From positions 1 through 59,374 of the IMG/VR virus record IMGVR_UViG_3300046010_004673: a stretch of DNA of 59,374 bases; one strand, written 5' to 3'. Both the position numbers and the translations under genes were made by a program. Position 1 is the first letter of the stretch; every line of letters begins with the position of its first letter. The notes under the pieces were generated by a model. That model was not told the DNA's origin. It did no database searches and was given only the letters and a program-made list of their open reading frames with translations. The DNA comes from a virus (lineage: Duplodnaviria > Caudoviricetes). Positions 1,261 to 59,374 of this stretch are shown here, one piece after another.

Positions 1261-1561
1261 TTGGAAAATTGAACAGATGATCGTGAATCCGCAAACCGAC
1301 TTGCACACCGATGTGGTGGTGACGGCGGCATGGCGCTGCACGGCGGTGGATGGCGAACACAGCGCATCCAACTACGGCAGCATGGGCTTTGCCTCACCAA
1401 GCGGCGACTTCATCGCTTATCCCGATCTGACCGAGGACACCGTGCTGGGCTGGATTTGGGCAAACGGCGTGGACAAGGCCGAGGTTGAGGCGAACGTGGC
1501 GCGTGAACTCGATATGCAGGTCAACCCGCCGACGGTGGCGAAGCCGTTGCCTTGGGTTTAA
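1253..1561 (+). CDS. Tail-fibre-associated protein
   Basis: AGGAG RBS; FIAYPDLTEDTVLGW...PLPW pattern typical of small genes that follow fibre genes. Confidence 0.65.
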   Translation: MANWKIEQMIVNPQTDLHTDVVVTAAWRCTAVDGEHSASNYGSMGFASPSGDFIAYPDLTEDTVLGWIWANGVDKAEVEANVARELDMQVNPPTVAKPLPWV

Positions 1562-1571
1562 ATAGTCTTTC

Positions 1572-2201
1572 ATGTTCGGTTTCGTCCCATTTGCCGCTGG
1601 TCCGTTCTCTGCGGAGAGTCAGGTCTTTGCGGATGTGGACGTTACCGGCGTTGAGGCGACCGGTGCGGTTGGCGATGTATTCGTTGTCACCGACCAGATT
1701 TTGGTTGTCACCGGGCTTTCGGCTACAGGCGAAGTTGGCACCGTTACAGTTGCTGCTAACGCGACGGTCGAAGTCACCGGGGTCTTTGCGACAGGCGAAC
1801 TGGGCATTGTCACTGTCGCAGCCAATGCGACGGTGGAACCCACTGGGGTTTCAGCCACAGGTCAGATCGGAACCGTTTCGGTCATTACCGATCAGATCTT
1901 CTCGGTCACAGGGGTATCAGGGACTGGCGAAGTTGGCACCGTATTTCCGGTCACAGATCAGGTCATTCTGGTCACCGGGGTATCTGGCACCGGGTTGGTG
2001 GGAACCCCCCTCATCTGGAGCATTATCAATGATGCCCAGAATCCAAACTGGGTTCCTATCGATGCTCGTCAAATTGACCCAGTCATTAGTTCAATCCCCT
2101 TTGCAGGCGGCACCTTTGCGGACGAAACCGGCATTGGATCACCTGCTTGGAATAATATATCCACTACCCAGAATCCAAACTGGACTCAGATAGCGGCTTA
2201 G
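1572..2201 (+). CDS. V/T/G-rich repetitive virion protein
   Basis: N-terminal MFGFVPFAAGPFS; six ~22-aa repeats of VTGVSATGEVGTV; position in the tail module. Confidence 0.65.
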   Translation: MFGFVPFAAGPFSAESQVFADVDVTGVEATGAVGDVFVVTDQILVVTGLSATGEVGTVTVAANATVEVTGVFATGELGIVTVAANATVEPTGVSATGQIGTVSVITDQIFSVTGVSGTGEVGTVFPVTDQVILVTGVSGTGLVGTPLIWSIINDAQNPNWVPIDARQIDPVISSIPFAGGTFADETGIGSPAWNNISTTQNPNWTQIAA

Positions 2202-2211
2202 AGGTTTAAAC

Positions 2212-4128
2212 ATGTCTAGTACATACTCAACCAACCTTGCCATCGAATTGATCGGCACAGGCGATCAGGCAGGTGCATGGGGTAACACCACCAACACCAA
2301 CCTCGGCACTTTGATCGAGCAGGCTATCTCTGGGTATGTCACTCAGGGCGTGACTACGGGCAACACCACCACAATCACCATCCCAAATGGCGCGACGGGT
2401 GTTGCTCGTAACATGTTCATTGAACTCACGGGGACAGGTGGAACGAACACCTTCCTTGAGGTTCCTGCCAACAAGAAACTTTATTTTGTTTACAACAACA
2501 CCACCGGAGCGGTGACGGTTCGCGTATCAGGCCAGACCGGTGTTGCTCTTGCTGTTGGCGAAAAGAAGATTCTGGTTAGCAATGGCACGGACATCGTCGA
2601 AGCGACGACCTACATTATCAGTGGTGGTAGTGCCAACCTGACCACCCTGACCGCGACCAGTGCCAATATCACCACCCTGACTGGAACCACGTTCGGCGAC
2701 ACTGGAATCACCCAGTTGCGCGGGGCCAGCGGCAACATCACGACCTTGACTGGTAGTGTTTTTGGAACGGTTGCTACAACTCAGTTGCGCGGCGCGAGCG
2801 GTGTTATCACGACCCTTGCATCAACCAATGCAACGGTCACTAACCTTTCTGTAACCAGCGCCAACATCACGACACTTACTGGCACTACTTTTGGCGATAC
2901 CTCAACAACTCAGTTGCGTGGCGCGAGCGGTGTCATTACCACTCTCACGGGAACCACGGCTACCTACTCTGATGTTAGAGGAACCAGCGCAAATATCACG
3001 ACGCTGACCGGCACTACGGTTACTTATGCATCCGGAAATATCGGCCAGTTCGGCGCTACATCCGCCAACATCACAACGCTGACTGGTACAAACTTTTCCG
3101 CCACTAGTCTAACTTTGACCAATGCTCTCAAGATCGGTCAAGGTGGAACTGGTCTGTCATCAACTCCGACTAATGGTCAATTGCTGATCGGCAACGGGTC
3201 TGGTTACACACTTGCTGCATTGACCGCTGGATCTAATATCTCAATCACTAACGGCGCTGGCTCGATCAGTATTGCAGCCACTGGCGGGTTGACGGGAACA
3301 ACAAGCGCAAATCTAACTGCTTTGGGCGTTGGTGCTGCGGCAAGTTTAACCAGCGGATCAAGCAATACATGTGTTGGATATAACGCTGGGAATTCTATCA
3401 ACACTGGCAGTTTCAACACTTTAGTTGGGCATGCCGCAGGAGACTCGATCACTGATTCAAATTGGAATTCAATGGTCGGATATTTTGCTGGAAACAATGT
3501 AACCACCGGAACGGCAAATAGTTTTGTCGGTTATTTCGCCGGAAACGGCGTTTCCACTGGTGGCTTAAATTCTGCTCTTGGTGATAGTGCATTTTTCACC
3601 GGTAACCATACCAACTCTGTTGCTCTGGGTTATGACGCACAAATAACTGGAAGCAATCAGGGTCAAATTGGAAACGGAAACGTAGACGTTTATGCCAAGA
3701 GTTTTAATAACACTTCAGATCTCAGAGATAAGGCTGATGTTCAAAGCACTAACCTTGGCTTAGATTTTGTTATGCAGTTGCAACCTCGTATGTTCCGCTG
3801 GGATATGCGCGAGTTTTATCGGCCACAAAAGCCCGGCCCGAATGCAACGCAAGCAGAACGAGATGCTTACAACGAAGCCAGTAAATTGGCGAATTTGACA
3901 CATAACGGCACACACAAACGTAATCGCTTTCATCAAGGCTTGATAGCGCAAGAAGTCAAATCGGTGATGGATAGTATGGGCGTTGACTTCGGTGGCTTTC
4001 GTGATGCCTCAGTCAGCGGCGGCGATGCCCAGATGGGATTGGAATACACCCAGTTCATTGCCCCGCTAATCAAGGCGATCCAAGAACTCAAAGCCGAGTT
4101 TGATGAATACAAGAGGACTCATCCATGA
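2212..4128 (+). CDS. Second tail fibre with peptidase S74 chaperone
   Basis: N-terminal MSSTYSTNLAIELIGTGDQAGAWG anchor; SANITTLTG repeats; N-x-x-VGY-x-AG beta-roll repeats; SDLRDK...HQGLIAQEV...LIKAIQEL. Confidence 0.85.
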   Translation: MSSTYSTNLAIELIGTGDQAGAWGNTTNTNLGTLIEQAISGYVTQGVTTGNTTTITIPNGATGVARNMFIELTGTGGTNTFLEVPANKKLYFVYNNTTGAVTVRVSGQTGVALAVGEKKILVSNGTDIVEATTYIISGGSANLTTLTATSANITTLTGTTFGDTGITQLRGASGNITTLTGSVFGTVATTQLRGASGVITTLASTNATVTNLSVTSANITTLTGTTFGDTSTTQLRGASGVITTLTGTTATYSDVRGTSANITTLTGTTVTYASGNIGQFGATSANITTLTGTNFSATSLTLTNALKIGQGGTGLSSTPTNGQLLIGNGSGYTLAALTAGSNISITNGAGSISIAATGGLTGTTSANLTALGVGAAASLTSGSSNTCVGYNAGNSINTGSFNTLVGHAAGDSITDSNWNSMVGYFAGNNVTTGTANSFVGYFAGNGVSTGGLNSALGDSAFFTGNHTNSVALGYDAQITGSNQGQIGNGNVDVYAKSFNNTSDLRDKADVQSTNLGLDFVMQLQPRMFRWDMREFYRPQKPGPNATQAERDAYNEASKLANLTHNGTHKRNRFHQGLIAQEVKSVMDSMGVDFGGFRDASVSGGDAQMGLEYTQFIAPLIKAIQELKAEFDEYKRTHP

Positions 4129-4610: not shown

Positions 4611-5095
4611 AAGTCAGCCCGGCCACAATAGAACTCATCAAACACCACGAGGGTGTGCGGACTAAGCCATATCGTTGTCCGGCGCTTTTGTGGACGGTGG
4701 GGTGTGGCCATGTTATTGACCCTACCCATGCGGCAGTAAAATATGAGGAGCGCAAGAGTCTACCGATACCCGCAGGCTGGGATCGCGTCCTACCGATGGG
4801 AGAGGTGGATACTATTCTTGCTCAAGACCTTGGCCGGTTTGAGCGTGGTGTTCTTCGACTTTGCCCTGCTTCTGCTGGCAATCAGGGAATCTTCGATTCT
4901 CTGGTCAGTTTTTCCTTCAACGTGGGCCTCGGCAATCTGCAACGTAGTTCGCTGCGGATGAAGACCAACCGAGGGGAACTGGAAGAAGCGGCTGACGAGT
5001 TCCTGAAATGGACCAAGGCTGGCGGCAGGGTCTTGCCGGGATTGGTTAAACGGCGCAATGATGAACGTGCGCTGTACCTATCTGGAGTCAGGTAA
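4607..5095 (+). CDS. Endolysin, GH24 phage lysozyme
   Basis: HEGVRTKPYRCPALLWTVGCGH (E-8x-C-5x-T); FDSLVSFSFNVG; LPGLVKRRNDE. Confidence 0.92.
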   Translation: MKVSPATIELIKHHEGVRTKPYRCPALLWTVGCGHVIDPTHAAVKYEERKSLPIPAGWDRVLPMGEVDTILAQDLGRFERGVLRLCPASAGNQGIFDSLVSFSFNVGLGNLQRSSLRMKTNRGELEEAADEFLKWTKAGGRVLPGLVKRRNDERALYLSGVR

Positions 5096-7407
5096 TGCCC
5101 CTGAAGAAAATCATATTCAACCCCGGTGTGAACCGAGAGACCACCAACTACGCAGGAGAAGGTGGGTTCTTTACCGTTGATAAGGTTCGGTTCCGTGGCG
5201 GATTTGCCCAGAAGATTGGCGGTTGGGTCAACGCATCTTCGGTTGCAGGCCAAACCTTCAAGGGGGTTGCTCGTTCCCTTTGGAACTGGGTCACGATCCA
5301 GTCTCAGAACCTTCTTGGCGTGGGAACCAACCAGAAGTTTTATGTGGAACTGGGCGGTCAATACAATGACATTACCCCATTAGCCGGAACCTCCCTGACC
5401 CTTGGGGATAATCCTTTCTCAACCACATCCAGTAGCAAGACTATTGTTGTCACTTCCACTGCTCACGGAACCACCATCGGATCTTTCGTCACATTCTCCG
5501 GCGCAACGACAGTCGCTAGTCTCAATCTCAACGGTGAGTTTGAGATTATCTCGGTTCCCGGCTCAGATACTTTCACCATCATCAGCCCGACAGCGGCCAA
5601 CACAACTGTGGTTGGCGGTGGGTCTTTGGTCATTGCCAGTTTCCAGATTGATGCAGGAACCGCCGTTTACACGACAACGGTTGGTTGGGGCGGACCACCG
5701 TGGGGCGCTGGTGGATGGGGGTCCAATATTCCATCTGGTGTTCCGTTGCGGCTTTGGTCGCAGTTCAACTATGGCGATGACCTGATCTTCGCAGAGCGAT
5801 CTGGCGATATTTATTACTGGACGAAGGATGTCACCACTTGGACTCGCGCCACGACGCTTGAGACCAAGTCCAACTCTTTGGTTAAGTTCTCGACCGCAGC
5901 CACCTTTGCATCTGGAACTACCACCATCGTGGTGGCCAACGCGACTGGGATTAACACCGGATCTGTGGTTTCTGGAACGGGCATCCCCTCTGGAACTTAT
6001 GTCTTGGCATCATGGGGCGGCGGCATTTCAGTCACCTTGTCTGCTGCTACAACCGCTTCGCTTACGGCTTCAGCAGTGTCTTTCAGTTATGCCGGTCGCC
6101 ATGTTCCCAACGAAGTGAATCTGGTTATTGGCTCGCCAGTTAATGACTTTACCATTTGCCTTGGTTCCAACCCATACAGCCCAGTCAACTTTGGAACGGA
6201 CTTTGATCCGCTTCTGGTTCGTTGGTCGGATCAAGACAATCCCTATGAATGGGTTCCCGAAGTCACTAACCAGTCTGGCGAACAAAGGGTTTCCAGCGGG
6301 TCGGAAATTGTTACTGGTATCTCTACTCGTCAGGAAATTTTGGTTCTGACGGATACTTCGGTTTATTCGATGCAGTATTTGGGTCCGCCGTTTGTGTGGG
6401 GATTCAATCTGCTTGATCAAGATATTTCGATTGCCTCTCAGAACGCCATCATTGCTGTAGACAACAACGTCTATTGGATGGGCAAAGACAAGTTCTATGT
6501 CTATAACGGTCGCGTTCAGACTCTTCCTTGCTCAATCCGTCAGCACATCTACAGCACCTTAAACGGCGATCAGTTGGCGCAGATCGTGGCTGGAAGCAAC
6601 GAGGCTTACAGTGAAGTCTGGTGGTTCTATGCCAGCACTGGAAGTTACGTCAACGACACGGTAGTGATCTACAACTACCTTGAGAACACATGGTCATACG
6701 GAAGCATGAATCGCACGGCCTTTGCGCCACAGTCGATTCGTCAGTATCCGATGGTCGCGCTGAGTACTCAGCAGTCCTATCTTGATACCAATATCAATTC
6801 GTCTGTAACGACTATCTCTCTCATCAATGGATTGTCATATCCAGAAAGTGGGACAGTGGTTATCGATTCTGAATACATCACCTATACAGGCATCGCTGGA
6901 AACACGCTGACTGGTTGCACTCGCGGAGCGCATGATCAAAACGGAGTTGCTACCACTGCGGCCTCTCACACCGCTGGAACTTCGGTCACATTGCTGGCCC
7001 CTAATCAGGTCTTGTTCCATGAGATAGGGTGGGATGACGTATCAACCGGTATCGCCAGACCCATTGAATGCTTCATTGAGTCTTCAGACTTTGACATTGA
7101 GGACGGAGAAAACTTCGCGTTTGTATCGAGGATCATCCCGGACATGAAGTTCTTGGGTTCCACGACATCCACTCCGTCTATCACGCTAAGTCTCTACCCG
7201 CATAACTACCCCGGCTCGGCTTATGGAACCCCCGATGTGGATCAAGTTCAGGCCAGCCAAGTACTCCCTATTGATCGCTACACAGAGCAGGTCTATACCC
7301 GTATTCGGGGGAGACAATTGGCACTGCGAGTTTCGTCCAACGGACTTGGTGTGGCATGGCAGATGGGCGCGATGCGTTTAGACATTCGCCCTGACGGTAG
7401 ACGCTGA
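5095..7407 (+). CDS. Tail nozzle / packaged-DNA stabilisation protein (P22 gp10-like)
   Basis: PG...DKVRFR N-terminus; VRWSDQD; VYWMG; C-terminal RIRGRQ...WQMG.MRLDIRPDGRR; podoviral gene order. Confidence 0.7.
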   Translation: MPLKKIIFNPGVNRETTNYAGEGGFFTVDKVRFRGGFAQKIGGWVNASSVAGQTFKGVARSLWNWVTIQSQNLLGVGTNQKFYVELGGQYNDITPLAGTSLTLGDNPFSTTSSSKTIVVTSTAHGTTIGSFVTFSGATTVASLNLNGEFEIISVPGSDTFTIISPTAANTTVVGGGSLVIASFQIDAGTAVYTTTVGWGGPPWGAGGWGSNIPSGVPLRLWSQFNYGDDLIFAERSGDIYYWTKDVTTWTRATTLETKSNSLVKFSTAATFASGTTTIVVANATGINTGSVVSGTGIPSGTYVLASWGGGISVTLSAATTASLTASAVSFSYAGRHVPNEVNLVIGSPVNDFTICLGSNPYSPVNFGTDFDPLLVRWSDQDNPYEWVPEVTNQSGEQRVSSGSEIVTGISTRQEILVLTDTSVYSMQYLGPPFVWGFNLLDQDISIASQNAIIAVDNNVYWMGKDKFYVYNGRVQTLPCSIRQHIYSTLNGDQLAQIVAGSNEAYSEVWWFYASTGSYVNDTVVIYNYLENTWSYGSMNRTAFAPQSIRQYPMVALSTQQSYLDTNINSSVTTISLINGLSYPESGTVVIDSEYITYTGIAGNTLTGCTRGAHDQNGVATTAASHTAGTSVTLLAPNQVLFHEIGWDDVSTGIARPIECFIESSDFDIEDGENFAFVSRIIPDMKFLGSTTSTPSITLSLYPHNYPGSAYGTPDVDQVQASQVLPIDRYTEQVYTRIRGRQLALRVSSNGLGVAWQMGAMRLDIRPDGRR

Positions 7408-8011: not shown

Positions 8012-8040
8012 TTGAAATTTAAACGCTGTTACAACAGAAT
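8012..8040 (+). promoter_or_regulatory. Possible sigma70 promoter for the internal virion genes
   Basis: TTGAAA-17 nt-CAGAAT in an intergenic gap; overlaps ATTTAAAC. Confidence 0.35.
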
Positions 8041-8078: not shown

Positions 8079-9602
8079 ATGTATAACGCGCCATATAAGG
8101 GAGTTGCGGACGAACTTGCTAAGTACGGCAGGTTCGGTGACTCGGAGTTAGTGCATTTAAACCCGATTGAGGTGGGGATCTTGGCATCCCTGTCTCCAAC
8201 TGGGCAGTTGACTATCAACCCAGTCACGGGCCAGAAGGAAGCCTTCCTCCCGTTCCTTGCTCCGCTGCTCGGATCGTTCCTAGGAAGTGCATTCTTGCCG
8301 AGTGTCATCCCGGCACTGGCCGGAAAAGCCGCATTGGCTGGAGCAATTGGCTCTGGTCTTGCCACTACCGCAGCCACCGGAGATCTCAAGGAAGGCATCA
8401 TCTCCGGCATCACCGGGTTCGGGTTGGGCAAAGCATTTGGCGCAGCCAGCGATGCATTGAAGGGCGCTGGGGAAGTTGGCAAAGCGGCAGAAACTGCAAC
8501 CAAGTTCGCAGATATTCCGACCAATATCGACATCCCTCTGTCTAGCATGGCTTCGCAGACCCCGTCAGCGTTGACTGGGATGCCGACCATTGCCAGCACA
8601 GCAGGCGGTGGCATGGGATCAGCGATTGCTCCAGTCACTCCACCGACTACGGCATTAGCCCCCACTCAAGCACTTAGTGCCCCGTTCGAACAACCCGGCG
8701 CTTTCTTAAATCAACTGACTCAGCCCGGATCTTTCCTTCCCATCTATGCTGGAACCAGCACTACAGAGAGCATGCGCCAGCAGGAAGATATGGAGAAACT
8801 GGCCAAAGAGCAGGGCCTCAGCGAGGAAGAAGCCAAGCGTAAGTACGAGGAAGATGCTCGTCGCGCCATTGAAACAGCGCAGCGTCTTTACCCGCAGATG
8901 AGACCGAAGGGTATGTACGCAGGGGGTCAAGTTGAAGGCTATCAAGAAGGCGGCATGTTTGGACAAAACCCATTTGGCGATCAGTACGGTTTAAACAATA
9001 TGTCTGGCGGGTTCTATGACACCCAGTTTGGCCAGACCAGTCCGTCCGATATTCAAGGTCGTCTGCGTGGGCCTGTCAGTGTGGCGGCTCCGTATGCGAG
9101 TTACGGCGCATTGGATGTCGGTGGTAGCGGATATCTCCCCGGTATCGCCCCTGAGTTCCAGTACTTCCGTCAGCCAGAGGAAGTGTATCCGCAGCCTCCA
9201 ATAACCATGGGTCGCGGTAAAGGGGGTGGGTTCGGTGGCGGTATGGGCGGCGGCAGAGGCAGGATCGGCGGCATGCCCGGTGGCAAAGGCGGCGGATTTG
9301 ACGGCGGCTACTCGGGTCCGGGCTTTGGCCAATATGACCCGTATGGCTACGGCGGTGGCTATGGCGGCTATGACGATTATGGTTATGGCGGCGGCTATGG
9401 TGGTGGCTACGGCGGCGGATACAGCAGCATGCCGAGCAAGGGCGGCTACGCCAATCCCCGTAACTCCATGGGATACGGCGGATACAACACTGGATTTGAT
9501 GTCTACAACCAGCCCTACAGCGGCGGTTACGGCGGCTATAGCAATCCGTATGGCGGCGGCTATGGCGGATACAGCGACTCGTTCGCGAGGTTCATGCCAT
9601 GA
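8079..9602 (+). CDS. Putative internal virion protein with Gly/Tyr-rich low-complexity C-terminus
   Basis: GRFGDSELVHLNPIE...TINPVTG N-terminal motif; hydrophobic G/A segment; YGG repeats. Confidence 0.6.
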   Translation: MYNAPYKGVADELAKYGRFGDSELVHLNPIEVGILASLSPTGQLTINPVTGQKEAFLPFLAPLLGSFLGSAFLPSVIPALAGKAALAGAIGSGLATTAATGDLKEGIISGITGFGLGKAFGAASDALKGAGEVGKAAETATKFADIPTNIDIPLSSMASQTPSALTGMPTIASTAGGGMGSAIAPVTPPTTALAPTQALSAPFEQPGAFLNQLTQPGSFLPIYAGTSTTESMRQQEDMEKLAKEQGLSEEEAKRKYEEDARRAIETAQRLYPQMRPKGMYAGGQVEGYQEGGMFGQNPFGDQYGLNNMSGGFYDTQFGQTSPSDIQGRLRGPVSVAAPYASYGALDVGGSGYLPGIAPEFQYFRQPEEVYPQPPITMGRGKGGGFGGGMGGGRGRIGGMPGGKGGGFDGGYSGPGFGQYDPYGYGGGYGGYDDYGYGGGYGGGYGGGYSSMPSKGGYANPRNSMGYGGYNTGFDVYNQPYSGGYGGYSNPYGGGYGGYSDSFARFMP

Positions 9603-11191
9603 GTAAGGGTGGTTTCCAAAACCCCAAGTACGCAAACCAATCCGGCACTACGAGCGGATATGGTTCCCAAGGGAACTTTGGGATGGGGTACACGCAGCCT
9701 TATGGTTCTCCGGGTACTGGAACCTATGACCCGATGCTCGGCTTCGGCCAAGCCTCTGGCATGGGAACCACTTACAACTACCCCACTCGATACACTGCCG
9801 ACTACACGCGATATGCCCAAAGCGGCCAAGCGTTTAACCCGGCTGTGATGGGGTACAACTCGTACGGCCAGATCTTCGCGCAGCCGCAGCGTCCGCCTCC
9901 GAGCATGGGCAAAGGCGGTGGTGGGTTCCGTCCGCAGCCCCCTCCCATCATGGGAGGCGGGAAAGGTGGATACGATCCTAATCGACGCATGCAGGCAAAT
10001 CCGGGATTTGACACACCGTTTGGGAATTTCCCACAGCCTCGCAGACCTGAGCGCCGTACCAATCAGTTGGGGTTAAACCAGCGTAGCGGTCCGGGTTATG
10101 GACCCCCTGTTTCTGGCGGTGGTATGCGTACCGCTGATTTGCAGGATAGTAATCTCGACGGAATCGATGATCGAGATCAAGGGCCGCGAACTGGCGGTCC
10201 GGGAGCGACCCCTCCTCCTCTTACTGCTGGCGAATTTTTTGAGCCGGGATCTCAGCCCCCCACTATTGGTGGTAAAGGTGGCGGTGGGCAAACTGATAAC
10301 ATCACGACTCGTAGACCCAGTGTTGGATTTGATCCAGAAGGTCGTTTCCGCAATCGTCAAAATAATCCTCCTAGCAATATCCTCAAGCCACCGCCTGTTG
10401 GCGCTGTTGTTGGTCCTTACACGGGAGGTTTTGGCAATAACGTGCCAGAGCCTATGTTTGATATGAACCAAGAGTTCAGATCTTATCCGGGCGGTAGCAC
10501 ACCAAGAGGAGGAGTGGGGCAGTCACTTCCCCCAGATATTTCTGGCAGTCCGTTTGGCCAGTTGCTTGGTGGCGGCTTAGGTGGAATGCCTACTGGCGGT
10601 CCTCAGATTCGCGCAGACTATGAGCCAATAGGCGGAAGAAACTTTGACATGTTGCCGACCGTTGTGCCGGATAACTACATTCCTCGCTTTGGAAACATGG
10701 GTTTTTTCCAAGAAGGCGGTCAGGTTCCCCCTGATGCCAACATGGAAATGATGATGGCCGAAACCGCACAGCCTGAAATGGCTGGCGAATATGACCGGCT
10801 TATCCAGATGACGATGCAGGCGATCTTGGGTCAAGTCGAGAACCCGGATGAAGTGATCCAGATGTTCATCGATGAGTTCGGTGTTGATTCGTTTAGACAG
10901 TTGCGTGACGCAGTCCTGAAGCAGCAGGTTCCCAACGCCCAAACCGAAGGAATGGTCGATGGCAACGGCGGCGGCATGGACGATCAAGTGATGGGCATGA
11001 TCGGTAACCAGCGTCCGGTGGCAGTGTCGCCGGGTGAGTACATTGTGCCTGCTGATGTGGTGTCAGGTCTTGGCGATGGGAGTTCCAAGTCAGGCGCAGA
11101 CATCCTCGATGAATTGAACCAAGCCGTTCGCATGGCTCGTACGGGAACCCCTGAACAGCCCCGTCCGCTGATGGAGACTCTGCAGCAATGA
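9599..11191 (+). CDS. Putative internal virion protein, G/P-rich and disordered, with conserved C-terminal domain
   Basis: ATGA overlap; C-terminal GEYIVPADVVSGLGDGSS.SGA..L motif. Confidence 0.6.
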   Translation: MSKGGFQNPKYANQSGTTSGYGSQGNFGMGYTQPYGSPGTGTYDPMLGFGQASGMGTTYNYPTRYTADYTRYAQSGQAFNPAVMGYNSYGQIFAQPQRPPPSMGKGGGGFRPQPPPIMGGGKGGYDPNRRMQANPGFDTPFGNFPQPRRPERRTNQLGLNQRSGPGYGPPVSGGGMRTADLQDSNLDGIDDRDQGPRTGGPGATPPPLTAGEFFEPGSQPPTIGGKGGGGQTDNITTRRPSVGFDPEGRFRNRQNNPPSNILKPPPVGAVVGPYTGGFGNNVPEPMFDMNQEFRSYPGGSTPRGGVGQSLPPDISGSPFGQLLGGGLGGMPTGGPQIRADYEPIGGRNFDMLPTVVPDNYIPRFGNMGFFQEGGQVPPDANMEMMMAETAQPEMAGEYDRLIQMTMQAILGQVENPDEVIQMFIDEFGVDSFRQLRDAVLKQQVPNAQTEGMVDGNGGGMDDQVMGMIGNQRPVAVSPGEYIVPADVVSGLGDGSSKSGADILDELNQAVRMARTGTPEQPRPLMETLQQ

Positions 11192-11634
11192 ATGCAGCAG
11201 TAGAGGAAATGCAAGTCTATGTGTCGTTGGTTCCGCCCATGCACATTGAGGATGCTTGGCCTTCACTGGTGTCTTATTTGGAACCTGCTGTCGAAAGATC
11301 TAACGGCAGATGGACTATGGATGCTCTGAAGATCTGGGCATTCAATGGTGAAAAGCAGATCTGGATCATCTTCGATGACAATAAAACGATACACTGTGTG
11401 GCGGTCACACAGAATGTCGTTTACCCGGCCAGCAAAATGCTCTCCATCGAGTTCCTCGGTGGTGCTGGCTTAGATAAATGGGCGTTTAAACTTCTCGATG
11501 TACTTGGCAGTTGGGCCAAGGACAGCGGATGCAATGGAATAGAAGCCACCGCAAGGATCGGCTTCTGGAAATGGCTTGAGAAAGACGGTTTCGATAAAGC
11601 CTACACCGTATTCGAGAAGAGGTTTGAACAATGA
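11188..11634 (+). CDS. GNAT-like protein among the internal virion genes
   Basis: FLGG...WAKDSGCNGIEATARIGFWK...GF motif; such genes commonly sit beside podoviral ejection genes. Confidence 0.6.
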   Translation: MNAAVEEMQVYVSLVPPMHIEDAWPSLVSYLEPAVERSNGRWTMDALKIWAFNGEKQIWIIFDDNKTIHCVAVTQNVVYPASKMLSIEFLGGAGLDKWAFKLLDVLGSWAKDSGCNGIEATARIGFWKWLEKDGFDKAYTVFEKRFEQ

Positions 11635-13742: not shown

Positions 13743-13745
13743 ACC

Positions 13746-38415: not shown

Positions 38416-38428
38416 GATGCTCTCCCGT

Positions 38429-42872: not shown

Positions 42873-43056
42873 CGTCTAAACAGCACCAAAATGGCACATG
42901 TTGCCTAAGTGATTGATTATCGGTCGAATTTAGTTTGAAAAAAATTGCGTTTACACGCTCCAAGGGGTAGGTTTCGGGGGTGGTTTTGGAGCAATTTCAA
43001 TCGCCACACAGTCAAAGATTATCAAAGTCACGGGAAAACAAGGGTTAAACGCGCAC

Positions 43057-43593
43057 ATGGCAGGTATCACTGACGAGTACGGGCTGACCGAAAAGCAGCG
43101 GAAATTCGCGGAAAACGTGGTTTCGGGTATGTCGATTGCGGATTCCTACAGGTATTCGTATGACGCGGGCGCAATGCAGCCTGCGACCGTGCAGCGTAGG
43201 GCGGCTGAATTGATGGTGAACGGCAAGGTCAAGGCATGCATGGAGGCGCTGGCAGCGGTTAGGAGGCGGCAGAGTGAGGCAACCACGGTCTCTGATCGGG
43301 ACATGCTGGTCACTCTGCTACGCAAGTGGAGTAAAGGGGACGAGTCTGCTACCAGTTCCCAACTGCGGGCCGCTGAACTGCTAGGCAAGGCATGCGGCCT
43401 CTACCGTGATGTCGTCGAGGATCACCGGGAACGCCCCGCCTCATTAGTAGCGGCAGAGTTGGAGGCGCGGCTTGCATCACTGCTGCAGCCTGTGCCGGTT
43501 GCTGCCCATTTAAACGTCGCTGATGCAGTGGAACAGGTTCCAGCAGAGCAGGTTCCCGTCGAGAATCACGGTCAATCTAGCCTAAGTCATTGA
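43057..43593 (+). CDS. terS: Terminase small subunit
   Basis: LTEKQRKFAENVVSG....DSYR.SY...AAELM.N.KV; AAELLGK..GLY. Confidence 0.8.
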   Translation: MAGITDEYGLTEKQRKFAENVVSGMSIADSYRYSYDAGAMQPATVQRRAAELMVNGKVKACMEALAAVRRRQSEATTVSDRDMLVTLLRKWSKGDESATSSQLRAAELLGKACGLYRDVVEDHRERPASLVAAELEARLASLLQPVPVAAHLNVADAVEQVPAEQVPVENHGQSSLSH

Positions 43594-43821
43594 ATTTAAA
43601 CGGGGTCTAGGGGTTAATTCCGGGCCGATTCTGGCCGAAAAAGTCGATGCCAGCCCCCCTTTTTGCGTAACGGTACCGCGTGATCCGTATACATGCGATT
43701 CCGCTCAAACGATCCCCTACTTTTCCCACTACTGTTGCGCCAAAACAACACGCACTGTTGTTAGGTTCCCGTTGTTCCCATGGGATTTTTTTAGAATTTG
43801 GTGCAGGAGTCTCTTGCCCAA

Positions 43822-43882: not shown

Positions 43883-44053
43883 CGGATTATTCTTTAGGTA
43901 AGTTTAAATGATTAGGTAAGAGTATATCGGTACTTGGGGTGTGTTCGCCACACTCCAAAGGGTGTGGCTCCCGATATACGATGGGTGGGTTCAAGAGATC
44001 TAGAATATGATGAAACGGGGGCTATTGTCCCTGCATTTTGAGGATCATTCATC

Positions 44054-48431: not shown

Positions 48432-48515
48432 ACAACGTCACAGGTATCTGTGATGCAACACTGCATGGCGCAGTGCGCGTGACTCCAAGCACGTTTAAAC
48501 TTGGTGCGAGGGAAT

Positions 48516-50267: not shown

Positions 50268-50306
50268 TTTATCATCCCGTTTAAACTTTTAGTGAGGTAA
50301 TCACAC

Positions 50307-52165: not shown

Positions 52166-52194
52166 TTGCATGTTTAAATTGATAAGGGTATAAA
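52166..52194 (+). promoter_or_regulatory. Possible sigma70 promoter
   Basis: TTGCAT-17 nt-TATAAA; the spacer begins with GTTTAAAT. Confidence 0.5.
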
Positions 52195-53140: not shown

Positions 53141-53410
53141 ATGGCAAAGAGTCCTGCTTGGCAGCGATCTGAAGGCAAGAACCCAAAGGGCGGTTTAAAT
53201 GCCGCCGGTCGCGCTTCTTACAACAGGGCAAATCCGGGCAAACCGGGATTGAAGCCGCCTGCTCCCAATCCAAAAACGGATCGGGATGCGGCGCGGCGTA
53301 AATCCTTCTGCGCGAGAATGACTGGAATGAAGAAGCGGCTGACCAGCAAGAAGACAGCCAATGATCCTAATTCCCGTATCAACAAGTCACTTCGGGCATG
53401 GAACTGCTAA
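53141..53410 (+). CDS. Small basic conserved phage protein
   Basis: AWQRSEGKNPKGGLN...RRKSFCARM...SRINKSLRAWNC. Confidence 0.7.
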   Translation: MAKSPAWQRSEGKNPKGGLNAAGRASYNRANPGKPGLKPPAPNPKTDRDAARRKSFCARMTGMKKRLTSKKTANDPNSRINKSLRAWNC

Positions 53411-53668: not shown

Positions 53669-53846
53669 AGCAAAAAGCAAAGTCAACGCAGCCGGTAACT
53701 ACACCAAGCCTGAGATGCGTAAAGCATTGTTTAACCAGATCAAGGGCGCTGCTGTACAGGGAACCAAGGCTGGTCAGTGGTCAGCCCGCAAAGCACAACT
53801 CTTAGCCAAGAAATACAAGGAGAAGGGCGGTGGATACCGCGACTGA
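53661..53846 (+). CDS. Basic protein, DUF5872-like N-terminal half
   Basis: YTKPEMRK...GQWSARKAQLLAKKYKEKGGGY. Confidence 0.65.
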   Translation: MAKAKSKVNAAGNYTKPEMRKALFNQIKGAAVQGTKAGQWSARKAQLLAKKYKEKGGGYRD

Positions 53847-54243: not shown

Positions 54244-54485
54244 AAGCCCCTCAACAGTCATTAAAGGCTTGGACGCAGCAAAAGTGGAGAACTAAGAGTG
54301 GTAAACCATCTAGTCAAACGGGCGAAAGATATCTTCCAGAGGCTGCGATCAAGGCTCTTTCCCCAGCCGAATACGCCAGAACCACCGCAGCCAAGCGAGC
54401 CGGAAAAGCCCAAGGCAAGCAGTTCGTCGCGCAGCCGAAAGGTATCGCGAAAAAAGTAAGACCGTTTAGACAACGAGGTAAATGA
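54240..54485 (+). CDS. Basic protein, DUF5872-like C-terminal half
   Basis: QQSLKAWTQQKWRT...ERYLP...KR.GK.QGKQFV.QP. Confidence 0.65.
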   Translation: MKAPQQSLKAWTQQKWRTKSGKPSSQTGERYLPEAAIKALSPAEYARTTAAKRAGKAQGKQFVAQPKGIAKKVRPFRQRGK

Positions 54486-55094: not shown

Positions 55095-55798
55095 TGGCCA
55101 CCAGCGGCACAGCGACGTTTAACCCGGACTTCGCGGAGATCGTCGAAGAAGCGTACGAACGCGCCGGATTGGAAATGCGGACAGGCTATGACCTGAGGAC
55201 CGCTCGTCGCTCCATGAACTTCATGGCGCAGGAATGGCAGAACCGAGGCATCAATCTGTGGACGGTAGAGACGGGAACCCAAGTCCTGACTCCGGGAACC
55301 TATACCTACACCATGCCTGCCGATACGATTGATCTCATTGAGCATCAACTTCGTATCTACGACGGCAACACCACGCAACAAGCGGACTACAGTCTGGCCC
55401 GTATTTCGGTATCGGACTACGCCATGCTCAACAACAAGTTGACGCAAGGGCGACCGCTACAGATCTATGTGGATCGTCAGCGTGACGCGCCGATTGTGTA
55501 TCTGTGGCCAGTCCCGGATAACGTCCAGACCTACACCTTGGCCTATTGGTACATCCGTCGAATCCAAGATGTGGGTTCTGGCGGAACCAATACCATGGAC
55601 GTTCCGGCCCGGTTCCTTCCCTGTTTAGTGGCCGGATTGGCCTACTATATTGCTATGAAGAAGCCGGAGTCGGCAGACCGGATTCCATTGCTGAAGTCCG
55701 AGTACGAGGCTCAGTTTGAACTGGCGGCAGGCGAAGACCGTGACAAGGCGGCTTCTCGGTTCCTCCCCTACATATCGAGTGTGACCGGCGGGTTCTGA
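55094..55798 (+). CDS. Head-tail connector/adaptor protein
   Basis: EIVEEAYERAG...ARRS.N...WQNRGINLW; LWPVPD; LVAGLAYY. Confidence 0.7.
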   Translation: MATSGTATFNPDFAEIVEEAYERAGLEMRTGYDLRTARRSMNFMAQEWQNRGINLWTVETGTQVLTPGTYTYTMPADTIDLIEHQLRIYDGNTTQQADYSLARISVSDYAMLNNKLTQGRPLQIYVDRQRDAPIVYLWPVPDNVQTYTLAYWYIRRIQDVGSGGTNTMDVPARFLPCLVAGLAYYIAMKKPESADRIPLLKSEYEAQFELAAGEDRDKAASRFLPYISSVTGGF

Positions 55799-55799: not shown

Positions 55800-56153
55800 A
55801 TGAGCCAGCCGTTCTCATCTGGCAAACATGCAATTGGTTTCTGCGATATGTGCGGATTCCAGTTTAAACTGCATGATCTGCGGAAAGAGATCTTTGACCA
55901 GATCTGGACGGGGAACCTCGTCTGCGATGAATGTCTGGATGTGGATCAACCGCAGTTGCAGTTGGGCAAGATCCCCATGGACGATCCGCAAGCACTCAAG
56001 GACGCACGTCCTGATCAGTCGCTTATCGCGAGCCGGGATATTCAGTGGGGATGGAACCCAGTTGGCGGCGGACAGGCTTATGATGATCCTCTGACCCCAA
56101 ACACCCTTGTGGCTGTTGGGGGCGTGGGAACCGTGACGGTATCAACGACATGA
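55800..56153 (+). CDS. Zn-finger-containing hypothetical protein
   Basis: CDMCG...VCDEC.D.DQPQL...DPQAL..ARP. Confidence 0.65.
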   Translation: MSQPFSSGKHAIGFCDMCGFQFKLHDLRKEIFDQIWTGNLVCDECLDVDQPQLQLGKIPMDDPQALKDARPDQSLIASRDIQWGWNPVGGGQAYDDPLTPNTLVAVGGVGTVTVSTT

Positions 56154-56791: not shown

Positions 56792-57036
56792 ATTTTTCTG
56801 CTACATCTGAGATTGGGCAAGTGTTTGTCCAAACCACGAACCATCGTGGCCACACGGTCGAAGAGATTGCTGAACGTGCGGCTAACCGGCTTTTGTCTGT
56901 AGACAGCAAAGAAGCATTGAACCATTGGTTGGTGCAATACCTTCGCGAAGCACAAGAGGCGGAGCGGCGGTCGATATGCAAGAAGTTGACTGACAAAGGC
57001 TATGTTGAAATCGCACAACTTATAGGAGATTTGTAA
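56788..57036 (+). CDS. Hypothetical protein
   Basis: TTNHRGHTVEEIAE; coupled ORF. Confidence 0.6.
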   Translation: MNFSATSEIGQVFVQTTNHRGHTVEEIAERAANRLLSVDSKEALNHWLVQYLREAQEAERRSICKKLTDKGYVEIAQLIGDL

Positions 57037-57497
57037 TGGCCATTAGCCAAGCAATGGTGACCTCGTTCAAGGTAGAGATCTTGAACGGCGTTCACGCATT
57101 CGGCACGTCTGTGACTCGCGCCACGACGAATGCCGATACATTCAAGATCGCCCTGTTCACTGCCTCAGCCACGCTGAGTGCAACGACGACGGCGTACACC
57201 AGTACGCTTTCTGATCAGGTGTCATCCTCTGGAACCAATTACACCACTGGCGGACAAACGCTTACGGTATCGCAGGTTCCCACATCGACCAGTACCACCG
57301 CATGGTTGGACTTCGACGATGTGACATGGCCGTCTGCCACGATCTCTGCGGCAGGCGCATTGATCTACAACGAGACCCAAGGGAACAAGGCCGTGGCCGT
57401 GCTGGATTTCGGAGGCACCAAGTCTTCGACCGCCGGTAACTTCACGATCCAGTTCCCCACCGCAAACTCTACGAGCGCAATTCTGAGAATTGCCTGA
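57036..57497 (+). CDS. Tail-associated structural protein
   Basis: SFKVEIL.G.H...FKIALFT...ALIYN...AVAVLDFG...FTIQFP. Confidence 0.65.
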   Translation: MAISQAMVTSFKVEILNGVHAFGTSVTRATTNADTFKIALFTASATLSATTTAYTSTLSDQVSSSGTNYTTGGQTLTVSQVPTSTSTTAWLDFDDVTWPSATISAAGALIYNETQGNKAVAVLDFGGTKSSTAGNFTIQFPTANSTSAILRIA

Positions 57498-57507
57498 GGA
57501 CGTTTAA

Positions 57508-59374
57508 ATGGCACTTGCAGTTGCTGATCGGGTCAAGGAGACCTCCACCACCGCTGGTACTGGAACCCTGACGCTGCTCGGGGCGGTATCCGGCTATCAA
57601 TCCTTTTCGGCTATCGGCAGCGGCAATACCACCTACTACTGCATCGTCGATGACAACACGGGCCAGTGGGAAGTTGGCGTAGGTACTTACACCAGCCCTA
57701 ACCAGTTGTCCCGCGACAGTGTGTTGTCGTCCTCCAGCGGCGGCAGTGCCATCACGTTCCTTGGGAACATCAAGCAGGTGTTTGTCACCTATCCTGCGGA
57801 ACGCTCGGTCTACGAGAACGCGGCGGGTAGTTTGGTGCTGAGTAAGGTGGAAGCCACCACCGGAGAGATTACCAATCTCACTTCAACCTCTGCAACGATC
57901 ACCAATCTCTCGCTGACCAGTCTGACCCTGAGCAATTTAAACATTGCTTCAGCCAACATCACGACGCTTACTAGCACCAACGCCACTGCTGCAAGCCTCA
58001 CCGTATCCACCGGCAACCTCACCTTCTCGTCCACCGGCCAGCGCATCACGGGCGATATGTCCAATGCGACGATTGCCAATCGGCTGGGGTTTCAGACTAG
58101 TACGACGAACGGCAATACTGATTTGCAAATTATTCCAAATGGAACGTCGGTTACTTCTGGAATCCGTTTGAACAATAACTCCGATACAACCAACGCTGGT
58201 TATGTTCGGATGTCCTTAAATTCTACAGAAGCAAGCATTTCCGTAGACAGAAACAGCGTCAGCGGAACATATTTGCCGTTAGGTTTTAATACCGGCGGCA
58301 GCGAGCGTATGCGGCTGGATACGTCGGGCAACGTCGGCATTGGCACTGCGTCGCCTGTAACTACGTTTGGAAAAAACCTTACGCTTTATAACGATGCAAA
58401 TACGGGAACCGTTGCATCAAACACGTATTTACTTGTTCAAAGTTTAAACAGAAATGGCGTAATAGACATTGCCAGTTCAGCAACTGGCACAGGTAGTTTG
58501 AATTTTGTAACAACCCCCGGCACCACTCTTGCTGGAATTGCTGGAGATATAGCAAATAGTGCGTTGGCGTTTAGAACGGGTGGTGCCACCGAACGCATGC
58601 GTATTGACTCCAGCGGCAACGTCGGTATTGGTACTGCGTCGCCTTTTACCACGATTGATGTCAACGGCTACTTTACGGCTGGTGTAAGAAACACAACGAA
58701 TATTTCTTTAACTAGCGGAACGCATTATTTTGGCTCTAGCCCGTCAGATTTAGTACGCAATAATATTGTTGGAAGCATAAATGCTGACAGCACAACGCCA
58801 GTTAGATTGCGGTTTTATAAATCACGAGGAACATCTGCATCACCAACCGCTGTAAGTTCTGGCGATCAAACTAACGATATTCAAACTTATGCCTATGATG
58901 GCTCTAGTTTTATTCAAGCCACCGCTATACAAGCGTCTGTCACAGCAACGCCTTCAGCAAATAATGTTTCTTCTGCGCTTTCATTTTTCACAAACGGAGG
59001 ATCAAGTTCGCCCACCGAGCGCATGCGTATTGACTCCTCCGGCAACGTCGGCATTGGCAAAATCGCAGCGTCGGGCGTAATCCTTGACGCAAATGGCGTA
59101 AGCCGTTCAACGCAGATTCAGATGCCCAATAGTGCGGGAACGTACACCGCTAACGTCGCAGGCTTCCACCTGTTTGGTTTCTCCGACAACAACCTGTACT
59201 TCAACTGGTTTGACGCAGGCGCAATCGTATTCCGTAATAACGGCGCCACCGAACGCATGCGTATTGACTCCTCCGGCAACGTCGGCATTGGTACTGCGTC
59301 GCCGGGGACAAAACTGGATGTTGTTGTATCTACCAATAATGGGTTGCGTATTTCCGATGGTGCAGTAACAGGTG
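57508..59374 (+). CDS. Long tail fibre, 5' part (missing from the ORF track; continues into 2..1114, ~982 aa total)
   Basis: ATG at 57508 (MALAVADRVKETSTTAGTGTLTL...). Translated by hand with no stop to the window end; 59344 corresponds to position 2 in the same frame. Contains repeated ERMRIDSSGNVGIG fibre motifs. Confidence 0.88.
   Translation, partial: MALAVADRVKETSTTAGTGTLTLLGAVSGYQSFSAIGSGNTTYYCIVDDNTGQWEVGVGTYTSPNQLSRDSVLSSSSGGSAITFLGNIKQVFVTYPAERSVYENAAGSLVLSKVEATTGEITNLTSTSATITNLSLTSLTLSNLNIASANITTLTSTNATAASLTVSTGNLTFSSTGQRITGDMSNATIANRLGFQTSTTNGNTDLQIIPNGTSVTSGIRLNNNSDTTNAGYVRMSLNSTEASISVDRNSVSGTYLPLGFNTGGSERMRLDTSGNVGIGTASPVTTFGKNLTLYNDANTGTVASNTYLLVQSLNRNGVIDIASSATGTGSLNFVTTPGTTLAGIAGDIANSALAFRTGGATERMRIDSSGNVGIGTASPFTTIDVNGYFTAGVRNTTNISLTSGTHYFGSSPSDLVRNNIVGSINADSTTPVRLRFYKSRGTSASPTAVSSGDQTNDIQTYAYDGSSFIQATAIQASVTATPSANNVSSALSFFTNGGSSSPTERMRIDSSGNVGIGKIAASGVILDANGVSRSTQIQMPNSAGTYTANVAGFHLFGFSDNNLYFNWFDAGAIVFRNNGATERMRIDSSGNVGIGTASPGTKLDVVVSTNNGLRISDGAVTG

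Follow-up and report, generated by a model that had tools for sequence, protein, structure and literature searches.

The closest described counterpart, by form, of the element reported here is the highly iterated palindrome HIP1 (GCGATCGC) of cyanobacteria, an octamer palindrome that is 15-300 fold over-represented, is conserved above control palindromes together with its one-mismatch forms, has no cause in codon preference, is unrelated to promoters and is distributed non-randomly (excerpts of PMC5861425). Alternate highly iterated palindromes (HIPs) reach 1000-2000 per Mb, their deviations falling preferentially on the end letters; a repair model proposed for them needs a site within ~1000 nt (excerpts of PMC4390886); an excerpted 2026 paper links HIP1 to type IV secretion. 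Here we describe the over-represented octamer GTTTAAAY, and the degenerate palindrome family to which it belongs, in the genome of a virus (Duplodnaviria; Caudoviricetes; IMG/VR record IMGVR_UViG_3300046010_004673). The window, meaning the whole stretch of 59,374 bases that we analysed, is the entire record, which is rated 100% complete; its GC content is 53.1%, where a preliminary description made from the letters alone had put it near 55%. The family is, by form, a virus-borne counterpart of HIP1 and of bacterial uptake sequences.

Other dispersed sequences also invite comparison. Dispersed operators (mycobacteriophage L5 stoperators, P1 C1, phiC31 conserved inverted repeats, RK2 KorA/KorB) let one protein act at tens of sites on a 40-100 kb replicon; these sites are 12-17 bp long and mostly intergenic, some at gene junctions, the stoperators being asymmetric and co-oriented with transcription and the RK2 sites being palindromes. 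GATC (Dam/MutH repair) and Chi are short words whose use depends on a site within ~1-2 kb (GATC) or on one soon met by a travelling enzyme (Chi), and the known Chi sequences, asymmetric and rich in G, are recognised on one strand. Uptake signal sequences (USS) of Pasteurellaceae are evenly spaced.

The 38 coordinates listed for GTTTAAAY in the preliminary description are all correct: GTTTAAAC, which is the PmeI site, occurs 13 times, GTTTAAAT 15 times and ATTTAAAC 10 times, and ATTTAAAT is absent, as had been said. TTTAAA, the DraI/AhaIII site, is found 42 times, and exactly four copies lie outside the motif, again in agreement, at 15564 and 23241 (GTTTAAAG), 20922 (CTTTAAAC) and 33454 (TTTTAAAA). 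Counting both strands, we found 51 matches, whereas 100 dinucleotide shuffles averaged 2.65 (sd 1.99, largest 10) and none of them reached 51; the reversed, non-complemented pattern has 0 occurrences. Markov models of orders 0-3 expect 0.5-2.3 copies on both strands, far below the 26 of GTTTAAAC and 25 of GTTTAAAT observed. The preliminary description had named agreement with a fifth-order Markov model as grounds for dismissing the signal, and at orders 5-6 the expectation does reach the observed count. This null is circular because its hexamers and heptamers are abundant only through the motif itself, and agreement with it is therefore no valid refutation.

Nulls that respect the genes gave the same picture. 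Genes were called with our own simple caller, which yielded 72 genes, 92.3% coding and 4562 noncoding bases. Fully inside genes lie 24 core (GTTTAAAY) sites, against a mean of 2.04 (sd 1.32, maximum 6) in 300 synonymous-codon shuffles, which places the count outside the codon-shuffled expectation. A further 11 core sites are intergenic and 3 sit on gene edges, compared with 0.18 (maximum 2) in 2000 shuffles of the noncoding bases. Enrichment of the core is thus ~12-fold inside genes and ~60-fold outside, noncoding DNA with 2.4 sites per kb is ~5 times richer in it than genes with 0.44 per kb, and the motif words are the top octamers of the genome. The in-gene sites are built with non-preferred codons. 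They encode Phe-Lys when read as G TTT AAA Y and Leu-Asn when read as xGT TTA AAY, whereas the remaining frame would give a TAA stop; Phe-Lys is written TTT-AAA in 11/33 cases (4.3 expected) and Leu-Asn TTA-AAY in 23/78 (4.7 expected), and 16 of the 83 rare TTA codons, which make up 6% of Leu codons, fall inside the motif. One dipeptide with its normal codon usage, a possible cause raised in the preliminary description, does not fit two dipeptides in two frames with non-preferred codons, and the shuffles and codon tables together rule out explanations by composition, codon usage or a single dipeptide.

The preliminary description had missed that the core belongs to a degenerate family of 66 sites, and that these are evenly spaced. 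Of 119 GTTTA pentamers on both strands, 79 fall within five octamers (GTTTAAAC 26, GTTTAAAT 25, GTTTAACC 15, GTTTACAC 8 and GTTTAGAC 5). When octamers were tabulated by half-site, at least one perfect half (GTTT/AAAC) was present at 66 sites and two imperfect halves at 2; this defines the consensus as the palindrome GTTTAAAC, in which one half may carry a single mismatch. Mismatches affect positions 1/8 at 25 sites, 2/7 at 15 and 3/6 at 13, tolerance falling from the outer to the inner letters, and ATTTAAAT occurs 0 times against ~4 expected (P 0.013). In genes the family counts 47 sites against 5.4 expected and between genes 15 against 0.56. No extended flank consensus was found (<=0.23 bits per column). 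The 66 sites in 59.3 kb comprise 32 on the plus strand, 21 on the minus strand and 13 palindromic ones; asymmetric variants run with transcription in 22 cases and against it in 20, and there is no polarity along the genome. Judged from the letters, this half-site pattern would be expected if duplex DNA were read by a two-fold symmetric protein with a binding threshold, such that GTTTAAAC, GTTTAAAT and GTTTAACC would bind and ATTTAAAT and GGTTAACC would not. Such a symmetric rule makes no sense for an RNA signal or a peptide motif.

Conservation was assessed in two near-complete relatives, G001 (46.7 kb) and G002 (56.5 kb), which share 74.9% and 71.6% DNA identity with the window over 31-35 kb. 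The enrichment that the preliminary description proposed to look for in related phages is present in both whole records, with 37 and 45 strand matches and 0 for the reversed control. Core sites are identical in the relative at 12 of 22 aligned positions in G001 and 10 of 20 in G002, while all remaining octamer windows give a background of 16.0% and 12.6% (P 4e-5 and 6e-5). In G002 variant sites are kept as the identical variant in 12/20 cases (P 8e-7). At two sites the class is kept while the sequence changes, namely 33557 (GTTTAAAT to ATTTAAAC in G002) and 11484 (GTTTAAAC to ATTTAAAC in G001). Site turnover is considerable, roughly 40-50% of sites being lineage-specific.

The sites are also spaced more evenly than chance predicts. 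The coefficient of variation (CV) of the gaps between the 66 sites is 0.57 against 0.98 for random placement, a value as low as this being reached in 0/5000 simulations; there is about one family site per 0.9 kb and the largest gap is 2456 bp where 4283 is expected (P 0.001). The unbiased set of all octamers with <=1 mismatch from the consensus (84 sites) gives a CV of 0.63 (P 0.0003), and the relatives give 0.63 (G001) and 0.70 (G002), with P 0.0003 or less. Eight family sites are spread along a single 8.8-kb gene, and the spacing is therefore independent of gene borders. Collectively, the family is under selection at the DNA level, lies in genes and more densely between them, is orientation-neutral and over-evenly spaced, and is limited to one freshwater clade. 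The earlier suggestion of a selected DNA signal is thus borne out by codon-aware enrichment, conservation in two relatives, orientation neutrality and over-even spacing.

The limits of the clade emerged from its wider relatives. No near DNA match exists among 50,697 deposited phages, and near-identical DNA appears in 20 listed runs, which belong to 17 studies sampling lakes, rivers and drinking water; one of these runs may itself have supplied the record. By large-terminase protein, the nearest named relatives are the Pelagibacter phages HTVC027P and HTVC023P, phage 023Pt_psg01 and lake phage DSL-LC04 (53-55% identity), followed by Pag-Yong1 and MinM2 at 45%; IMG/VR holds >599 terminase relatives. 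Loci with terminase identity >=76% carry the motif family (e.g. L009, L016, L026), some of them led by the variants GTGTAAAC/GTTTACAC or GTTTAGAC. At 64-72% identity the family is absent, and many loci repeat a different palindrome, 14-19 bp long, nearly all copies of which lie between early genes. Palindromes or hairpins of their own, often just upstream of the ribosome-binding site (RBS), are carried by L069, L049, L068, L070, L078, L082, L052, L046, L033 and L109 (Pag-Yong1). That of L069 is CCTAACATGTTAGG (5/7 intergenic); CCTAACA-N-TGTTAGG is intergenic in 22/22 copies across four loci; GCGTACGGyWGCCGTACGC of L082 is intergenic in 18 copies and on a gene edge in 3 of 21, and precedes nearly every gene; CTCAAGTCkGACTTGAG is intergenic in 9/11. 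Pag-Yong1, with the same gene layout, has 26 copies of GGTTCAG-S-CTGAACC in 50 kb and zero TTTAAA. These palindromes of distant relatives could be promoters, operators or RNA hairpins. An apparent match in L053 proved to be a tandem repeat within a gene. HTVC027P and DSL-LC04 (GC 52%) show no strongly over-represented word, and DSL-LC04 has 1 GTTTAAAY in 50 kb. From this pattern we conclude that the feature belongs to one freshwater clade and is no consequence of GC content or habitat.

We also searched for a host that carries the word. GTTTAAAY was counted against the reversed control in 725 bacterial genomes (401 Pseudomonadota, 201 Actinomycetota, 121 Verrucomicrobiota and 2 others, totals that include four genomes marked unpublished). 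None shows the enrichment, cyanobacteria lying outside this sample, so that the data to date lend no support to the proposal that the motif could point to the host. Matches in the phage run at 0.47 per kb per strand; the highest genomes reach ~0.09 per kb, these being small genomes with equally high controls, and in genomes with sizeable counts the best motif-to-control ratios are ~2. Two Actinomycetota, G471 and G556, exceed the reversed control ~7-10 fold (25/24 vs 1/4 and 21/24 vs 1/5) at a density of only ~0.007 per kb. Terminase relatives in GTDB are <=67% identical and scattered over many phyla (15 loci), giving no host assignment, and a protein-atlas search with a 220-aa early protein gave none either, with all scores below 0.8. 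The Planktothrix phage Pag-Yong1 (OL906435.1) has 68.5% GC in its first 50 kb, presumably far above the GC of Planktothrix, and its recorded host may deserve a second look.

Individual sites confirm the positional remarks of the preliminary description: 2204, 37519 and 57502 lie between RBS and start codon, 1556 and 38427 lie over stop codons, and 52172 falls in the spacer of the promoter-like pair TTGCAT-17-TATAAA. One correction is needed, site 33557 lying inside the RusA gene. Around the intergenic sites (14 aligned) no promoter-like fixed geometry was seen by eye. The 66 sites follow, with coordinates, strand and setting (CDS, coding sequence; terS and terL, small and large terminase genes).

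1556..1563, plus: core GTTTAAAT, over stop codon of gene 1253-1561
2204..2211, palindromic: core GTTTAAAC, between GAGG and ATG of gene 2212-4128; kept in G001 and G002
3344..3351, plus: variant GTTTAACC, in CDS
5044..5051, minus: variant GGTTAAAC, in CDS; kept in G001 and G002
5665..5672, plus: variant GTTTACAC, in CDS; kept in G001
7376..7383, plus: variant GTTTAGAC, in CDS; kept in G002
8017..8024, minus: core ATTTAAAC, intergenic; kept in G001 and G002
8155..8162, minus: core ATTTAAAC, in CDS; not kept
8989..8996, palindromic: core GTTTAAAC, in CDS; not kept in G001
9832..9839, plus: variant GTTTAACC, in CDS
10071..10078, minus: variant GGTTAAAC, in CDS
10891..10898, plus: variant GTTTAGAC, in CDS
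11484..11491, palindromic: core GTTTAAAC, in CDS; G001 has ATTTAAAC at the equivalent place
12289..12296, plus: core GTTTAAAT, in CDS; not kept
13737..13744, minus: variant GGTTAAAC, gene junction 13742/13746; kept in G002
14504..14511, plus: variant GTTTAACC, in CDS
16732..16739, palindromic: core GTTTAAAC, 2949-aa gene; kept in G001 and G002
17522..17529, plus: core GTTTAAAT, 2949-aa gene; kept in G001 and G002
18404..18411, plus: core GTTTAAAT, 2949-aa gene; kept in G001
18776..18783, minus: variant GGTTAAAC, 2949-aa gene
20182..20189, minus: core ATTTAAAC, 2949-aa gene; kept in G001 and G002
21517..21524, minus: core ATTTAAAC, 2949-aa gene; kept in G001 and G002
22339..22346, plus: variant GTTTAACC, 2949-aa gene
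23570..23577, plus: variant GTTTAACC, 2949-aa gene; kept in G001 and G002
24772..24779, plus: variant GTTTAGAC, in CDS (NinB-like gene)
25351..25358, palindromic: core GTTTAAAC, intergenic by our gene calls; G001 has GGTTAAAC
26894..26901, minus: variant GTGTAAAC, in CDS
27821..27828, palindromic: core GTTTAAAC, aminotransferase gene
28594..28601, palindromic: core GTTTAAAC, aminotransferase gene
29403..29410, plus: variant GTTTAACC, in CDS; kept in G002
29512..29519, plus: core GTTTAAAT, in CDS; not kept in G002
30608..30615, minus: core ATTTAAAC, in CDS; not kept in G001
31188..31195, plus: core GTTTAAAT, in 71-aa gene
32375..32382, plus: variant GTTTACAC, exonuclease gene; kept in G002
33557..33564, plus: core GTTTAAAT, RusA gene (R-L-N); kept in G001, G002 has ATTTAAAC
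34861..34868, palindromic: core GTTTAAAC, primase-helicase gene; kept in G001 and G002
35978..35985, plus: core GTTTAAAT, primase-helicase gene; kept in G001 and G002
36636..36643, minus: variant GGTTAAAC, in CDS
37058..37065, minus: core ATTTAAAC, intergenic; not kept in G001
37519..37526, palindromic: core GTTTAAAC, between AGGA and ATG of minus-strand gene 37195-37518
38427..38434, plus: core GTTTAAAT, contains TAA stop of minus-strand gene 38429-38608
38978..38985, plus: core GTTTAAAT, in CDS
39997..40004, plus: variant GTTTAACC, in CDS; kept in G001 and G002
40509..40516, minus: variant GTGTAAAC, in CDS
42216..42223, minus: variant GTGTAAAC, intergenic; octamer kept in G001 and G002
42874..42881, minus: variant GTCTAAAC, intergenic, upstream of terS; G002 has GGTTAAAC
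42949..42956, plus: variant GTTTACAC, intergenic, upstream of terS; G001 has GGTTAAAC
43043..43050, minus: variant GGTTAAAC, just before terS start; kept in G002
43508..43515, minus: core ATTTAAAC, in terS; not kept in G001
43594..43601, minus: core ATTTAAAC, directly after terS stop; kept in G001
43902..43909, plus: core GTTTAAAT, ~20 nt downstream of TTGCTC-17-TAAAAT, upstream of terL
45324..45331, minus: variant GTGTAAAC, in terL; kept in G002
46278..46285, minus: core ATTTAAAC, portal gene; kept in G001 and G002
46692..46699, plus: core GTTTAAAT, portal gene; not kept
47250..47257, plus: variant GTTTACAC, portal gene; kept in G002
48493..48500, palindromic: core GTTTAAAC, intergenic; not kept in G002
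50279..50286, palindromic: core GTTTAAAC, intergenic; not kept in G002
52172..52179, plus: core GTTTAAAT, spacer of TTGCAT-17-TATAAA, after terminator-like hairpin
53193..53200, plus: core GTTTAAAT, intergenic; kept in G002
53729..53736, plus: variant GTTTAACC, in CDS; kept in G002
54464..54471, plus: variant GTTTAGAC, in CDS; kept in G002
55117..55124, plus: variant GTTTAACC, in CDS
55862..55869, palindromic: core GTTTAAAC, in CDS; not kept in G002
57502..57509, plus: core GTTTAAAT, overlaps ATG of gene 57508-59373
57935..57942, minus: core ATTTAAAC, in CDS
58442..58449, palindromic: core GTTTAAAC, in CDS

Six of these sites bracket terS (42874-43902), and the densest cluster stands at the homologous place in both relatives. 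Just before it, between the divergent early and late gene blocks, runs a GC-rich noncoding stretch (42548-42860) without Rfam match; its minus strand folds at -128.5 kcal/mol (z -3.1, 0/100 shuffles as good), making a structured RNA or an origin region possible. Rfam gave 0 matches at gathering thresholds, and tRNA genes are absent from the window. Two good pairs of sigma-70-type promoter-like hexamers were noted, TTGCTC-17-TAAAAT upstream of terL (43840-43870) and TTGCAT-17-TATAAA (52160-52200), the latter following a terminator-like hairpin that lies behind gene 51179-52087. From these pairs the host would seem to use standard bacterial promoters. A Shine-Dalgarno-like tetramer precedes 56/71 genes, the caller favouring such genes.

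Among the reading frames covered by family scans (Pfam or PHROGs; 47 frames, with ~25 mostly late genes outside the scan) we found tail-fibre, portal and terminase genes, a primase-helicase, a CobS-like ATPase and a recombination set of a Sak-like annealing protein, a PD-(D/E)XK exonuclease, NinB, RusA and a weak Ref-like HNH match. The last corresponds to a 118-aa frame at 24220-24576 on the plus strand, with weak HNH-type matches below curated cut-offs (Ref PF16786 E 2.6e-4; DUF968 E 3.8e-4). The same frames contain no methyltransferase, restriction-type nuclease, ParB/KorB-type protein, clear repressor, integrase, DNA polymerase or Gam-like inhibitor. On the minus strand, a sugar-modification cluster (26263-29718) consists of a GNAT acetyltransferase, a 301-aa protein, a DegT/DnrJ/EryC1 aminotransferase (Pfam E 2e-95; homologues are named perosamine synthetase or dTDP-4-amino-4,6-dideoxygalactose transaminase) and a weak GT8-like glycosyltransferase. 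The 8.8-kb gene is a 2949-aa open reading frame (15393-24242, plus strand) in the virion gene block, with PHROGs matches all of unknown function and a 2773-aa counterpart in Pag-Yong1 annotated 'large polyvalent protein'. We considered its product as a virion RNA polymerase that uses the motif and rejected this: there is no solved-structure match (best E 0.23) and no D.D.D motif, a very divergent enzyme still being possible. At the record ends 32 nt are identical (1-32 and 59343-59374), which looks like the assembly overlap of a genome that is circular or permuted; a tail-fibre-like gene, itself containing 62-nt repeats, seemingly spans the ends (57508-59373 + 2-1114), and the start of the record is therefore arbitrary.

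Under the synonymous-shuffle null one other word family stands out in the genome, [G/T]GGAACC, which is enriched in the close relatives as well. GGGAACC/GGTTCCC has 63 sites against 13.6 in the shuffles (e.g. 2000, 8044, 21035, 44828-58404) and TGGAACC 35 against 11.5. Of the GGGAACC sites, 59/63 lie in genes, mostly starting at the third codon base (G|GGA|ACC or G|GTT|CCC); their strand bias is 18:1 across 44.8-58.4 kb and their spacing is unremarkable (CV 0.87). In appearance the word is more Chi-like than the GTTTAAAY palindrome. No comparable density of CGGGAACC was found in the 401 Pseudomonadota genomes.

Comparison with described systems supports the earlier idea of a HIP1-like iterated palindrome, as far as form goes. 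Like a HIP, the phage word is an octamer palindrome far above compositional expectation in and between genes, its sites are conserved above control octamers with one-mismatch forms enriched and kept (variants in G001 not significantly so), and its one-letter deviations are biased to the first and last positions (25, 15 and 13 sites from outer to inner); as for HIP1, there is no cause in codon preference, no fixed tie to promoters, a non-random distribution and a density near 1 per kb. In contrast to HIPs, it sits in a complete, lytic-looking virus genome and not in a cyanobacterial chromosome, no cognate methyltransferase is present in the scanned frames, and particular one-mismatch forms equal the perfect word in enrichment. 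The regularity lies in neighbour spacing (~0.9 kb), whereas HIP1 has a 10-90 kb period. The core TTTAAA is AT-rich, while HIPs are GC-rich words around GATC/CGATCG, and the excerpted list of Elhai holds no such word (PMC4390886). With USS and the DNA uptake sequences (DUS) of Neisseriaceae it shares ~1 site per kb, both orientations, occurrence in genes and intergenic DNA and a low-cost fit to coding frames; the over-representation of uptake sequences drops 80-90 fold from 0 to 1 mismatch, with mismatched forms still over-represented (excerpts of PMC1939737). The phage word, an 8-mer palindrome, shows no such steep loss, and USS/DUS differ further in being non-palindromic, 9-12 nt long and at home in competent bacteria with an uptake receptor. 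We know of no phage counterpart of the drive by uptake plus recombination.

The remaining systems resemble it less. Unlike stoperator or operator sets, 47/66 phage sites are in genes, orientation follows no rule, spacing is even, and the scanned frames hold no repressor or integrase. The intergenic palindromes of relatives share with it the feature of one lineage-specific repeated palindrome per lineage but are 14-19 bp, hairpin-capable, confined almost entirely to the gaps between early genes and, in the stretches seen, not spread over the genome. With GATC and Chi, as described above, it would share a selection for density and coverage, but GATC, a tetramer, depends on Dam and MutH, Chi has an asymmetric sequence that works in one strand orientation, and no such enzymes were found in the phage; with a palindromic consensus and the near-equal orientations of its asymmetric variants it lacks the polarity of Chi. 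Unlike a restriction-modification target, it is enriched and not avoided. Our literature search, with supplementary motif tables outside it, found no phage for which a GTTTAAAY word, or an iterated palindrome at even spacing, has been reported, and in the excerpted genome paper on the HTVC023P type the terms for repeats and promoters do not occur.

Taken together, the best explanation overall appears to be a signal of the HIP1 or USS kind, recognised by a symmetric reader of duplex DNA and providing genome-wide coverage, to which we assign a probability of about 0.4. A dimeric, sequence-specific protein with two-fold symmetry would recognise each site in duplex form, and loading or nucleation at the sites would start a process that has to extend to every 1-2.5 kb of phage DNA; this process would mark or handle the whole phage DNA (coating, scanning, packaging recognition, repair/recombination licensing) and not single genes. 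A need for a site within 1-2.5 kb suits genome-wide loading, nucleation or marking better than single-gene control. Going by the sequence, we tentatively favour a symmetric reader with a coverage function that is specified by the phage. Our first guess for its use would be nucleation and spreading or sliding of a phage DNA-binding protein; our second is recognition by the small terminase, which (43057-43593) would be a weak candidate reader. More doubtful is the wider proposal that a lytic freshwater phage clade keeps its own iterated palindrome independently of the host, with a phage-specified symmetric binder or modifier marking or coating the chromosome as 'self' for packaging, protection or recombination.

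Several points weigh against this explanation. The 66-site set was chosen after the counts were seen, and gene-level counts depend on our simple gene caller. Variant sites in G001 are kept in 4/15 cases, which is not significant (P 0.21). Among 65 control palindrome families the mean CV is 1.08 and the lowest is also 0.63, and G001 and G002 are not independent replicates for spacing. The cluster around terS, considered as a pac region, was rejected as such, its maximum of 5 sites per kb being unremarkable under random placement (P 0.43-0.74). No candidate reader family for the motif is among the 47 frames scanned, and the survey yielded no host, with cyanobacteria, the one group known for HIPs, outside its 725 genomes.

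The leading rival holds that the phage mirrors its host, which would carry the same word as an 'alternate HIP', perhaps with a TTTAAA-specific methyltransferase and methyl-directed repair; the phage would gain or retain its sites through replicating under that host machinery. The form is close to HIP1 (octamer palindrome, one-mismatch forms kept, end-letter deviations, ~1000-2000 per Mb, no promoter link; excerpts of PMC5861425 and PMC4390886), and Elhai's repair model, which predicts a site within ~1000 nt, fits the spacing (excerpts of PMC4390886). However, the known alternate HIPs are GC-rich, and TTTAAA does not occur in the excerpted text of Elhai (PMC4390886). A phage with matching gene layout, Pag-Yong1, is recorded from a cyanobacterial culture, and the lack of a methyltransferase in the scanned phage frames means that a host enzyme would be needed; against this stand the 725 genomes without enrichment and the Shine-Dalgarno-like tetramers at 56/71 genes (favoured by the caller), such tetramers being less typical of cyanobacteria when frequent. 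We regard a mirrored host signature as unlikely, and a reader specified by the phage clade as the likelier of the two, a ranking that is itself tentative. That one phage repressor or activator controls transcription globally from many dispersed palindromic operators would explain why sites are ~5 times denser in noncoding DNA, why several lie at gene junctions, in RBS-start gaps and within or after promoter-like hexamers, and why the longer palindromes of distant relatives sit almost only between early genes; the halves of the RK2 KorA operator resemble GTTTA/TAAAC. It is nevertheless improbable, with 47 of the 66 sites inside genes and eight along one 8.8-kb gene, no fixed promoter distance or orientation rule, an even spacing regardless of gene borders that operators would not lead one to expect, and no integrase or repressor family in the scanned frames.

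A Chi-like role, in which sites halt degradation of linear phage DNA by a host RecBCD/AddAB-type helicase-nuclease and feed recombination-dependent replication, accounts for high density and full coverage, both of which protection needs, and the phage has a recombination set without Gam-like inhibitor or DNA polymerase in the scanned frames. We judge it quite improbable: the word is an AT-rich palindrome with a symmetric mismatch pattern and no orientation bias, the host would need the enrichment too, which was unseen in 725 genomes, and GGGAACC looks the more Chi-like word. Nick or cut sites made by the phage, as in T5-like interrupted genomes, or packaging starts would suit a crisp short word without flank signal, the weak HNH-type match at 24220-24576 and the densest site group around terS in all three genomes, but a palindrome nicked on both strands amounts to a double-strand break about every 0.9 kb, the graded mismatch tolerance resembles binding and not cutting, and the terS cluster is not significant, so that such sites are very improbable. 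Largely refuted is the view that the word has no function at the DNA level and arises as a side effect of composition, codon-pair bias, some peptide motif or an RNA/translation signal such as hidden stops or UUUAAAC, a known slippery heptamer. The word does hold an out-of-frame TAA and has two reading frames open, but synonymous and codon-order shuffles give 2 in-gene sites against 24, two dipeptides, two frames and both orientations are in use, enrichment is even stronger outside genes, half-site symmetry is without RNA or peptide logic, and DSL-LC04, of similar GC, has 1 site.

HIP1-like palindromes have been known for thirty years without an agreed function, and the organisms that carry them, in chromosomes of several megabases, are slow to manipulate. 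Here a HIP-type pattern is found in a 59-kb phage that is abundant in many lakes and comes with a natural series of relatives that have the motif, other palindromes or none. The motif family is a simple marker of this phage clade in metagenomes, and, if the host carries the motif, it would also be a host-prediction signal. If a host is found, what reads the word, and why a site lies within ~2 kb of everywhere, would become directly testable. Should the iterated palindrome indeed be specified by the phage, it would be the first virus-borne system of the HIP/USS kind and a small, tractable model for iterated palindromes.

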